Notes under the pieces: generated by a model
The model's database searches: none
The model's input: the letters and a program-made list of their open reading frames with translations, nothing else
Told to the model about the DNA's origin: nothing
Translations under genes and position numbers: made by a program
From: an uncultured Gemmatimonadales bacterium
Lineage (GTDB): Bacteria; Gemmatimonadota; Gemmatimonadetes; Longimicrobiales; RSA9
Assembly: GCA_963798085.1 (NCBI GenBank)
Contig: CAWCRS010000007.1
Location: 1,824,001-1,888,000 of the forward strand
Direction of reading: 5' to 3'
Length of the DNA: 64,000 bases
Shown here: positions 34,385 through 63,400 of the stretch, piece by piece
How the letters are laid out: every line of letters starts with the position of its first letter
Position numbering within the stretch: the first letter of the stretch is position 1

Positions 34385-35667
34385 CGTTCAGTCCGCTCCT
34401 CTCGTTCCGGGCTCGCCCAGCGGGCCAGCCACTCCTGGCTCCAGGCGGCGAAGTTGCCGGCCTGGATGGCCGCCCGCGCGCGCTCCGCGAGGCGGATCAT
34501 GAACCGCAGATTGTGGATGGAGAGCAGCCGGAGCGCCAGCAGCTCTTCTGCCAGGACCAGGTGCCGGATGTACGCACGGCTGGTGGTCCGGCACGTGTAG
34601 CAGTCGCATGCCGGATCGAGCGGCCGGTCGTCGGCGCGATAGCGCGCAGCCTTGGCATTGACCTGTCCCTCCCCTTCTACCCACGCCGTTCCGTTTCGGC
34701 CGTTGCGCGTGGGCGCGACACAGTCGAACAGATCAATGCCGCGACCCACCGCGCGCACGAGATCGTCCGGATAGCCGACGCCCATCAGGTAGCGCGGCCA
34801 GGTCGCGGGCATGTCGGGGTCGAGCGCCTCGAGCACCGTCCACATGTCGTCCTTCGACTCGCCTACCGAGAGGCCGCCAATCGCAATGCCGCGCCAGTCG
34901 CCCAGCTCACGCACGCGGCGCAGCGCGGCGCGCCGCAGCTCCGGGTACACCGCACCCTGCAGGATGGGAAACAGCGCCTGCCTGTGCGGCTCGCCGTCTT
35001 CGGCCACCAGCGCATCGAAGCGCGTACGGCAGCGCGCCAGCCAGCGCAGGGTGCGCTCGTGCGCTACCTCCGCCAGCTCGCGGCTGACCTTGCCCGCAGG
35101 GCATTCATCGAACGCCATGATGATGTCGGCGCCCAGCGCGCGCTCGATCTCCATTACGCGCTCCGGCGTGAACATGTGCCGCGAGCCGTCGATGTGGCTC
35201 TGGAACAGCACGCCTTCCTCGCTCACGCGATTCGTCGCGCTCAGGCTGAACACCTGGAACCCGCCCGAGTCCGTGAGAATCGGCCGCGGCCAGTTCATGA
35301 ATCCGTGCAGCCCGCCCAGCGAGCGGATCAGCTCGTGCCCCGGCCGCAGATAGAGATGGTACGTGTTCGCCAGCACAATGCTCGCGCCCATCTCGATCAG
35401 CTCATCCCGCGACACCGCCTTCACCGTCGCCTGCGTACCGACCGGCATGAACGCCGGCGTCGCGATGGCGCCGTGGGGCGTCTGCAGCGTACCTGCCCTG
35501 GCGGGCCCGTCTCGAGCATCGAGGCGGTAACTGAACGGCGTTGCTGGCACTGGCTGCTGGGGCTGGTTGCTCGCGAACGGATCGACGGATTTCAACGGCG
35601 TTGCGGGCGCTGGTTGCCGGGGCTGGTTGTTCGGGAACGGACTTGCACTCGACACGTCAGCGTTCAT
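34381..35667 (-). CDS. tgt: tRNA-guanine transglycosylase with repeat-derived N-terminal extension
   Basis: [37 protein letters not shown] and CDCYTC zinc site; start chosen at ATG 35667, preceded by AGAGGA. Confidence 0.95.
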
Positions 35668-35779
35668 CTTGCATCCTCTGGATGCCGGCATGCGCCTCTA
35701 ACACCATGTTCACGGTTCCGTGGTTTCTGAATCTGTTCCCCGGCAATCCGCGCGCGCAACCAGCCCCAGCAACGCAGTT
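35534..35779. repeat. Composite palindromic element, copy 1: two direct arms (35534-35581, 35594-35641) and an inverted arm (35735-35779)
   Basis: Arms aacggcgttgctggcactggctgctggggctggttgctcgcgaacgga and aacggcgttgcgggcgctggttgccggggctggttgttcgggaacgga (42/48 identical, 60-bp period); inverted arm gttccccggcaatccgcgcgcgcaaccagccccagcaacgcagtt. Confidence 0.85.
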
Positions 35780-35785
35780 CATCCG

Positions 35786-60405: not shown

Positions 60406-60435
60406 CCCCAGCCCCAAGCCCCAGCCCGAGAAACG
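60406..60435. repeat. Isolated hexamer-tract module of the composite element
   Basis: ccccagccccaagccccagcccgagaaacg; shares the cccgagaaacg end with 44156-44197; just downstream of the dnaE2 stop. Confidence 0.6.
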
Positions 60436-60447
60436 CATTCGTAGTTC

Positions 60448-63400
60448 TCAGTGAAAATCCCTCGACCGGTAGCGCACCGGCTCGCGCGTGCCCGAGTCCA
60501 TCCGCAACTGGCGGAAACGCGAGCCAATGATGTTCATCACGCGGTCTTCACGCTCGAATTTCCCTTCCACCACGAGGAACGGCGAGAACTTCACGGTCTC
60601 GCGATACTTCGCGTACGTGTCGCGCGGCACGATCACGTTGATGTAGCCCCATTCATCCTCCAGCAGCACGAACACCGTGCCCTTCGCGGTTTCCGGATGC
60701 TGTCGTGCCACCACCAGGCCCGCGACCACGATACGCTCGCCCCCGTACACCGCCTCCAGGTCGCGCGAAGGCACCACACCCGCCGCATCCAGCCGTGCGC
60801 GAATGAACTCCAGCGGATGCCCGTGCGTGCTGATGCCTGTCGCCAGGTAGTCGAGGAACACCAGCTCCGCGCCTTCCAGCTCCTGCGGCGCGAACGGCAG
60901 CATCCTCGCCGGCGCCAGCGGCAGCAGGTCGCCCGCCGCACGCAACGCTTCCCACGCCGCCCGCCGCCGCCCCGGCTGGAACGCCTCGAATGCACCCGCC
61001 CTCGCCAGATGCAGCGCATCCGCCCGCGTCAGCCTCGCCCGCCGCACCACATCCGCAATCGACACGAACGCACCCTCCCCCCGCGCATTCTGCAACGTCT
61101 CCTTCGCCACCTCCCCCAGCCCCTGAATGTGCTTCCAGCCTATTCGCAATGCCGGTATTTCTGAAGGCGTTGCTGGGGCTGGTTGCCCTGAGGACGGCAA
61201 CAGCGTTGCTGGCGCTGGTTGCTGGGGCTCGTTGCTGGGGAACGTCGGTACGGATTGGACGGCGTTTCCCGGGCTCGGGCTCGGGCTGGGGTTCGCGGTT
61301 CCGGACGCAACGGACATTCCCCTAACATGCTGTTCAGGAAAAGCAACATCGCCGCCGCTGCCGCCGTTGCCGTGGCTGTTTTCGTTGCCGTTCCCCAGCA
61401 ACGAGCCCGAGCAACCAGCCCCAGCAACGCTGTTCCCCAGCCCCAGCCCGAGCCCGTCGTCGCAGACGACCTGGCACTCCCAATCGCCATCCCGCAGACA
61501 CGGCCCCAGCACGACGACGCCGTGCCGTCGGGCATCGTGCACCAGTGTCGCCGGTGGATAGAAGCCCATGGGCCAGGCGTTCAGCAGGCCCAGGTAGAAT
61601 TCCGCGGGATGGTTCGCCTTGAGCCACGCGGTGGCGTAGGCGATGAGCGCGAAGCTCCAGGCGTGCGATTCGGGAAACCCGTAGTTCGCGAAGGAAAGCA
61701 GGTCGCGCACGACTTCGTCCGCGACTTCCACCGCCACACCCCGCGCCACACAACGATCGCGCAGCCGCGTGAGCGCGCCGCGCAGGCGCTCCACCTTGCG
61801 CTGATGACCCATGGCGCGCCGCAGTTCATCCGCTTCGCTGGCGCTGAACCCGCCCAGTGCCATGGAGATCGCCATGGCCTGTTCCTGGAAAATCGGCACA
61901 CCGTACGTGCGCCGCAGAATCGGCTCCAGCAGCGGGTGCGCGTAACGCACTTGTTCGCGGCCTCGCCGGCGCTCCGTGTACGGGTGCACGAACTTCGCCT
62001 GGATCGGTCCCGGCCGGATCAGCGCTACCTGCACCACGATGTCGTAGAGCCGCTCCGGCTTCGTCGCCAGAATCGACTGGATCTGTGCCCGGCTCTCGAT
62101 CTGGAACGTGCCCACCGTGTCGCCCCGCACGATCATCGCGTAGGTGCGCGCGTCGTCCACCGGCAGCTTGTAGAGCGCCAGCTTCTCACCCGTGCGCTGC
62201 GCAATCGCATCGAACGCCAGATGGATCGCCGACAGCCCGCCCAGTCCCAGGAAATCGAACTTGGGCACACCCGCCGCATCCAGGTCGTCCTTGTCGAACT
62301 GGATGATGGTGCGACCCATGGTGGTGTGCTCGATGGGCAGCCATTGCCCCAGCGGCTGGCTGGACAGCACGAACCCGCCCGGGTGCGTCGAGCGCAGCCG
62401 CGGCACGTCGTCCAGCACCCGCATCGCCGCCACCAGCGCCCGCCCGCGCGCATCCTCCAGCTCCAGCCCGAACTCCTTCGCCAGCCCATCCTGCAGCAGC
62501 AGCACGCCCTCCGATGGCTCCAGCCCGTGCATGCGCTTCGAGAACTGGAACGCGTACTCCGCCGGATAGCCCAGCGCCCGCATCACATCCTGCAGCGCGG
62601 TGGGCGCGTGGAACGCCTGCGTCACCGCCGTGATGGCCGCGTGCTGCCGGCGGTAGTGGTCGTACATGTAATCCAGTACTTCTTCGCGCCGGTGCATCTC
62701 GAAGTCGACATCGATATCCGGCGCTTCCGTACGACCGTCCGTGCGCACTTCGGAGAGAAACCGCTCGAACAGCAGCCCGTGTCGCACCGGATCCACGGCC
62801 GTGATCCCCAGGCAGTATGCTACTGCGCTGTTAGCCGCGCTGCCCCGGCCCTGACAGAGGATTTCGCGCGAGCGCGCGTAGCGCACGGCATCCCACATCA
62901 CCAGGAAGAAACCCGCGAAACCCAGCCGCCGGATGACGCCCAGCTCGTGTTCCAGCTGCGCCCGCTGCCGCTCGTCCACTTCACCCCAGCGATCGCGCGC
63001 ACCGCCGAACGCCAGCTCGCGCAGCCAGCTGTCGTCCGTGTGTCCCGCCGGCACCTCGAACGTCGGCAGCGGCGGGCGCAGCCAGCGCAGATCGAAGGCA
63101 AGACAGTCATCGACAATGTCGGCCGTCGCGGACAGTCCCGCTTCGCGACCCCGCCACAGCAGCGCCATCTCGGCCGGCGACTTGAGCCGCCACTCCCCGT
63201 TCGGCAGCAGCAGACCCCACGATGCCGCCGTGTTCACGCACACACCGGCGCGATTCGCCGTCAGCAGGTCGTGCGCCAGCCGGCCCGCACTGTCCAGGTA
63301 GCGCGCATCATTCGCCACCACCCACCGCACCCGGCCCCGCTCCGCCAGCTCGATCAGCGCCTGCGCCAGCGCCGACTCCGCTCCCCCCGCATGATGCAGC

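Follow-up and report, generated by a model that had tools for sequence, protein, structure and literature searches.

Dispersed repeat arms in a soil Gemmatimonadales bacterium match those enclosing a four-helix-bundle gene and may be gene-less copies of its cassette

In this report we describe a short repeat found in a 64,000-nt stretch of DNA (the window; all window coordinates are those of this stretch) from the genome of an uncultured soil bacterium of the Gemmatimonadales (contig CAWCRS010000007.1, positions 1,824,001 to 1,888,000), where arms of about 46 bp stand in tandem and are followed by a spacer and an inverted arm. The same arms populate the whole genome, point inward wherever both orientations meet, and match the arms which enclose a small gene of the four-helix-bundle family PF05635/TIGR02436. 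A match of this kind was observed in four relatives as well, and in a sister species complete arm-gene-arm cassettes are dispersed. We lean towards the reading that the repeats of the window are gene-less copies of such a cassette and that its protein spreads them. They likely represent an undescribed kind of jumping element, in whose movement the cassette gene would take part.

The source genome (G000) is 90% complete, that of the sister species (G001) 91% and that of a further relative (G010) 98%; all three belong to a family set of 73 genomes, together with G009, G016, G024 and G032 used below.

Arms and arm pairs across the genome

A profile built from 137 genome copies of the arm was used to search G000 with a match cut-off of E ≤ 0.1, which gave 308 arms in 158 clusters, and 0 matches at E ≤ 1 were obtained on the reversed genome used as control; further copies beyond the three loci of the first-pass annotation are thus numerous. 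The arm has a period of 13 bp, and the GGGCT(C/G) hexamer tracts found next to some copies resemble degenerate arms. Single arms make up 76 of the clusters, 18 are same-direction tandems and 64 contain both orientations, and in every one of the latter (64/64) the forward arms come first and the reverse arms after. Spacers between the arms are unique in sequence, with a median of 146 bp, and 30/56 of them carry the motif CTAAC (6 expected), which sometimes forms a small hairpin; examples lie in the window near 35700, 43965 and 61322.

The element had been called palindromic, which holds for the arm pair, as it forms a hairpin (z -4.8 at the tgt locus), and not for single arms, which have no common fold: among four copies that were folded, two did not exceed their shuffled versions and two took folds unlike each other. 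The outer ends of the element are fuzzy in G000, and target duplications did not exceed permutation (1/74 pairs, permuted rate 1%). Arms free of stop codons in all six frames were frequent (102/196, compared with 509/3920 shuffles and 658/2731 intergenic 50-mers).

The description of the repeat as a lineage-specific, non-autonomous dispersed element was borne out. The typed arm pattern was found in 0/60 relatives and 0/400 genomes of the phylum (two overlapping sets), and the only variant found is the one carried by G001, which typed patterns had missed. An exact 32-nt arm pattern gave 0 matches in genome contig and metagenome contig collections, and a 21-nt pattern gave five in metagenomes, three of them full element copies in other contigs and two due to chance. 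No arm match was obtained in phages, and in plasmids there were two short matches at chance level only. In the window no Rfam family scored over its gathering score. Among sequencing runs none of RNA was listed as containing it. Three low-coverage contig sets from one sample contained no joint skipping the element, and the four-helix-bundle gene had no coverage there.

The four-helix-bundle cassette and its relatives

G000 has two four-helix-bundle genes with profile scores over the cut-off. One of them (C2:43110-43451), located at the junction of two methionine-synthase-type genes (the metH junction) and not in 23S rRNA, is enclosed by inward arms of the same family as those of the window (arm pair G000:C2:43006-43601). 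The first-pass annotation, which saw no transposase in the window, had overlooked this link to a gene elsewhere in the genome. Seven inward arm pairs lie 300-3000 bp apart in G000, and only the pair at the metH junction encloses a recognisable gene. The terminal stem of the cassette is predicted to be long (z -7.1, 20 shuffles). A structural model of the G010 homologue is predicted to be a four-helix bundle resembling 2GSC (template modelling score, TM, about 0.9) and Avd (4DWL, 0.82), with 2RLD matching too. As for other candidate partners, no DUF559 gene was found in G000, and neither of its two GIY-YIG matches adjoins arm clusters.

The four-helix-bundle family is present in 65 of the 73 family genomes. 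Among the fetched loci the metH junction holds this gene in six genomes, of which G024 is the sixth; the arms around it are particular to each genome and unrelated between genera. With G024 left out, the dispersal of the cassette arms within their own genome was tested in five genomes (G000, G010, G001, G009 and G032) and was found in all five. Besides the 308 matches in G000, the arms of G010 gave 229 own-genome matches and 0 in four other genomes, those of G001 147 (13 in G000, none in three further genomes), those of G009 15 (3 for every congener, 1 apiece for two genomes outside it), and those of G032 7 (14 in G016, none in the remaining 71); counts for relatives were made by pattern and include overlapping tandem units. 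The arm subunit reads GTTGCT in G000 and GTTTCT in G001, both at the cassette and genome-wide, that is, the arms of the cassette and of the dispersed copies have changed in concert. From one genus to another both the sequence of the arms and the sites they occupy are replaced completely. In G010, which has one four-helix-bundle gene, the arms of this gene match the insert in a loop of its own DnaE2 (score 44, best foreign 15). G001 contains in addition eight recently dispersed, decaying arm-gene-arm copies of another subfamily (L242-L251), about 85-92% alike and 535-1030 bp long, which is too short for a transposase; one of them (L248) has a 33-bp flanking direct repeat.

This layout extends beyond one family of bacteria. 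With a local score of at least 18 required for inverted arms in the flanks, they were found around 27/48 four-helix-bundle genes of the family genomes and 41/62 homologues from many phyla, the latter being what was left of 80 loci once 5 whose flanks were short and 13 duplicates of a single genome had been dropped; a few of them overlap the family set. The controls for these 62 gave 6/62 in direct orientation, 0/54 in distant windows and 32/367 for cross-locus pairs. GxxExxY genes had inverted arms in 13/26 cases checked. One in G000 (C5:495386-495955, L034) lies between inverted arms of a third, low-copy repeat family (4 matches). In G474, a delta-proteobacterial genome, the cassette takes the form of a multi-copy element which ends in CTAG and carries fragments of a transposase in scrambled order (L180-L209, L159): its arm end has 123 matches, CTAG follows 28/30 right ends and stands on both sides in 15/18 copies of which both ends were seen, and nearly every copy is rearranged internally in a different way, either really or as an effect of assembly. 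Judging by motifs known to us, and not by a profile test, we take this transposase to be IS1182-like.

Copies in the window and their position relative to genes

The three loci reported earlier are all present, each showing forward arms in tandem, then a spacer, then an arm in inverted orientation, and the period of 13 bp can be seen in them as can the GGGCT(C/G) tracts. The arms are similar, as had been stated, with a range a little wider than the 38/45 to 40/46 given before (33-40 of 46 in our own alignment), and the three loci are not the full set: a fourth site, a single degenerate arm on the minus strand (60409..60443, profile E 0.07), lies just past the dnaE2 stop.

At the first locus two forward arms on the plus strand (35530..35582, profile E 6e-13, and 35591..35642, E 7e-12) are followed by a spacer (35643..35729) with CTAAC and by an inverted arm on the minus strand (35730..35782, E 1e-10) immediately past the stop of queA (open reading frame, ORF, 35786-36844). 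The host gene tgt (34381..35691, minus strand; Pfam and translation) likely starts within the spacer, where its sole nearby in-frame ATGs are placed (35667 and 35691, minus strand), and runs through both arms, which would be translated in frame on the minus strand as an N-terminal extension; the Pfam domain begins at residue 62, after the two arms. The site is empty in G001, G010, G036 and G013 (4/5 relatives), and G032 holds an unrelated insert there. The second locus lies between convergent genes: one full and one partial forward arm (43793..43869, plus strand) stand past the stop of a 2-hydroxyacid dehydrogenase gene, a spacer with CTAAC follows (43870..44090), and the inverted arm with a hexamer-tract degenerate arm (44091..44197, minus strand; inverted-arm sequence at 44091-44180) stands past the stop of an M28 peptidase gene.

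The third locus is in frame within a gene for a second DNA polymerase III alpha subunit (60448..63999, minus strand; Pfam), presumably dnaE2. Three forward arms (partial, full and hexamer-type; 61163..61289, plus strand), a spacer with CTAAC (61290..61384) and an inverted arm (61385-61435, profile E 1e-14) with an outer hexamer tract (61385..61458 together, minus strand) account for most of a loop of 109 aa which separates the finger domain from the HhH domain, and the 49-nt arms are 94% complementary. The same loop is 9-165 aa long in 19 orthologues (L004-L022), in several of which it is built of unrelated inverted repeats, and in G001 another loop of dnaE2 contains, in frame, an arm pair of that genome. 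The comparison of orthologues identifies the entries into dnaE2 and the Tgt N-terminus as derived insertions, which rejects an ancient conserved linker and confirms the in-frame entry into dnaE2 claimed before. These two loops of dnaE2 gather unrelated repeat insertions in many genera, and the loop of 9-165 aa is a hotspot. GxxExxY cassettes were considered as a source of the dnaE2 inserts and are unsupported, with a best own-genome score of 18, below the foreign scores, for the flanks that were fetched.

Gene positions across G000 were taken from our own codon-based gene caller (5173 genes, 82% of the genome coding). Although about 82% of the genome is coding, 139/158 clusters are intergenic, and they are enriched between convergent genes (42/150 vs 484/3256, p 4e-5). 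The caller placed 11 of the others across gene ends, 4 in C-termini and 4 inside genes; on inspection these four internal calls comprised two solid mid-gene in-frame copies (dnaE2 and a gene which we take to encode an Lhr-like helicase), one possible and one false. The tgt locus was rated intergenic by the caller, though the tgt ORF passes through two arms. The first-pass claim that the element colonises ORFs is therefore overstated, with 2 solid internal copies, 1 possible, 4 C-terminal and 1 likely N-terminal; its suggestion that stop-poor arms permit survival in frame stands, since arms rarely hold stops, and the idea of ORFs as a target does not.

Other repeats were noticed in the course of this work. 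A Gly-rich coding repeat with a 48-bp period (window 46461-47006) lies in a plus-strand ORF (46168-47325) with no Pfam match. Family D, the fourth repeat of G000 (window 45961-46003 and genome-wide), numbers 186 copies, most of which stand singly; family E, the fifth, numbers 48, nearly all in one orientation. One high-copy repeat occurs in only two places, probably CRISPR arrays, and one GC-rich repeat in only six places.

Movement of the arms and comparison with known systems

We propose that paired arms would fold as a long hairpin in single-stranded DNA or RNA, and that the Avd-like protein may bind the tandem arm subunits and, because no nuclease activity is known for PF05635, would recruit a host cutting or repair enzyme. 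Insertion would leave neither a fixed end nor a target duplication. Most surviving copies would stand directly after stop codons or where convergent genes meet, and now and then one would persist in a protein loop that tolerates it, because arms rarely hold stops. Given the apparent frameshift in the cassette gene of G000, the arm population of this genome would either be growing old or depend on the C8 paralogue, which is intact and has no arms.

Several facts weigh against a role of the cassette protein in spreading the arms. No movement has been observed, and we know of no nuclease activity or catalytic function in the PF05635 family. The metH-junction gene appears from its sequence to be frameshifted near codon 32 in G000, that of G001 is frameshifted at another place, and still the arms of both genomes show concerted change; the C8 paralogue, which is intact, has no arms. 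Pairs are only marginally more conserved than single arms (median 34.7 vs 30.4 bits, p 0.056), and single arms are as common as stated above; the arm populations of G009 and G032 are small. The dnaE2 inserts match own-genome flanks, which were fetched in part, in only 2/13 genomes. Finally, G474 shows that a DDE enzyme is able to mobilise arms of this kind, the gene travelling as cargo, and the absence of PF01609 (DDE_Tnp_1) and of a G474-type transposase applies to a 90%-complete G000 in which other, i.e. most, transposase families were not searched.

This last point leads to what we consider a less probable, still serious alternative, namely that the arms are the ends of an element like the miniature transposable elements with inverted repeats (MITEs), moved by an unrecognised or lost transposase, with the four-helix-bundle gene as cargo or accessory. 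The CTAG ends and transposase fragments within G474 copies, the frameshifted genes of G000 and G001 and the surplus of CTAAC in the spacers would fit it, but G000 shows no target duplication, has fuzzy outer ends and gave no match to either transposase type named, and, were the gene cargo, dozens of arm families that are unrelated and come from different phyla should not contain it. It is rather unlikely that the host keeps the arms as sites of binding or of RNA processing, spread by recombination and slippage and homogenised by gene conversion, with a protein that reads them and does not move them. This would agree with the enrichment between convergent genes, the tandem subunits, the lack of duplications, the retention of the gene at one locus in six genomes, and the excision by RNase III, at terminal inverted repeats, of a 23S rRNA intervening sequence with this gene family (PMC4990558); it is opposed by the complete turnover of arm sequences and sites between genera, by whole cassettes dispersed and decaying in G001 and by insertions in frame within protein loops.

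Repetitive extragenic palindromic (REP) doublets forming hairpins (REPINs) are thought to be spread by REP-associated tyrosine transposases (RAYTs), and a RAYT or IS200-like gene flanked by the arms had been envisaged in the first-pass annotation. G000 does have one RAYT over the NCBIfam cut-off, at C8:104709, but it lies between inward arms of another repeat, family B (cassette G000:C8:104664-105639, L001), which with 210 arms in 87 clusters, mostly doublets, encloses its RAYT in the same manner as the four-helix-bundle gene is enclosed and so serves as an internal control. That our arms are ordinary REPINs moved in trans by this RAYT is very improbable, despite their inward doublets and intergenic location, since no Y1_Tnp match exists in G001 or G010, both with large arm populations, and the arms have no conserved internal palindrome. 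An assembly artefact or low-complexity chance can practically be dismissed: the genome is assembled and the G474 copies look scrambled, but copies in G000 are diverged, stand in unique contexts and keep reading frames, the reversed-genome control was empty, and full copies occur in metagenome contigs.

Beyond the cassette of G000 we suggest, tentatively, that PF05635 genes are the core of a widespread, undescribed mobile class, in which each gene would keep its own pair of inverted tandem-unit arms and drive gene-less arm pairs throughout its genome, with no transposase fold or reverse transcriptase; the 23S intervening sequences and Avd would be offshoots of this class and GxxExxY nuclease genes a parallel system. 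Members of PF05635 are common and their structure has been solved, yet no function is known for them; the family is now linked to matching, fast-changing repeat populations. If the cassette protein does spread the arms, the idea of REPINs extends beyond RAYT transposases and could account for many of the short repeats, tandem or inverted, that stand unannotated in environmental bacteria; the element also shows where some low-complexity protein loops that look spurious, as in DnaE2, come from. Small genes flanked by repeats are familiar, and the layout may be known informally. In the accessible parts of the literature, including those of PMC8700078 and 10.1101/2021.01.26.428298, we found no report of dispersed repeats tied to PF05635; most subscription journals and ISfinder were outside this search, and supplements of RAYT/REP surveys could bear on novelty.

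Among the closest known systems are REPINs (defined in PMC3116915) and RAYTs (grouped in PMC5581495). As in the present repeat, inverted doublets number in the hundreds, are specific to a lineage, vary in their spacer, lie mostly outside genes and are tied to one small gene enclosed by the same arms. Here, however, that gene encodes a four-helix bundle and not an HUH transposase, the arms are tandem 13-bp units with no conserved palindrome, singles are common and doublets only marginally better conserved. In the 23S rRNA intervening sequences of Coxiella and Leptospira, described in PMC4990558 as having an S23p ORF, terminal repeats, RNase III processing and a pentameric protein, PF05635 likewise lies between terminal inverted repeats forming a long stem and the gene is often decaying, whereas the present cassette sits at junctions within mRNA operons and has arms that also occur without the gene, as populations spread over the genome. 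PF05635 resembles Avd (PMC10053308), the accessory protein of diversity-generating retroelements and thus of a mobile system; the fold is the same (4DWL and 8UB7, TM 0.82-0.85), but identity is 12-14%, and searches of G000, G001 and G010 gave no reverse transcriptase, which 15/73 family genomes have. The PF05635 family has also been noted in cas loci (PMC3936711). MITEs and Rickettsia palindromic elements, nearly half of the latter being in-frame insertions according to PMC10969869, are similarly non-autonomous with inverted ends, mostly intergenic and with some in-frame fusions, but our element has no target duplication, fixed ends or fixed length, and in-frame copies amount to a few percent. 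Like REPINs in arrangement, different from REPINs and MITEs in these properties and tied to a four-helix-bundle cassette, the repeat population described here possibly belongs to a new class.

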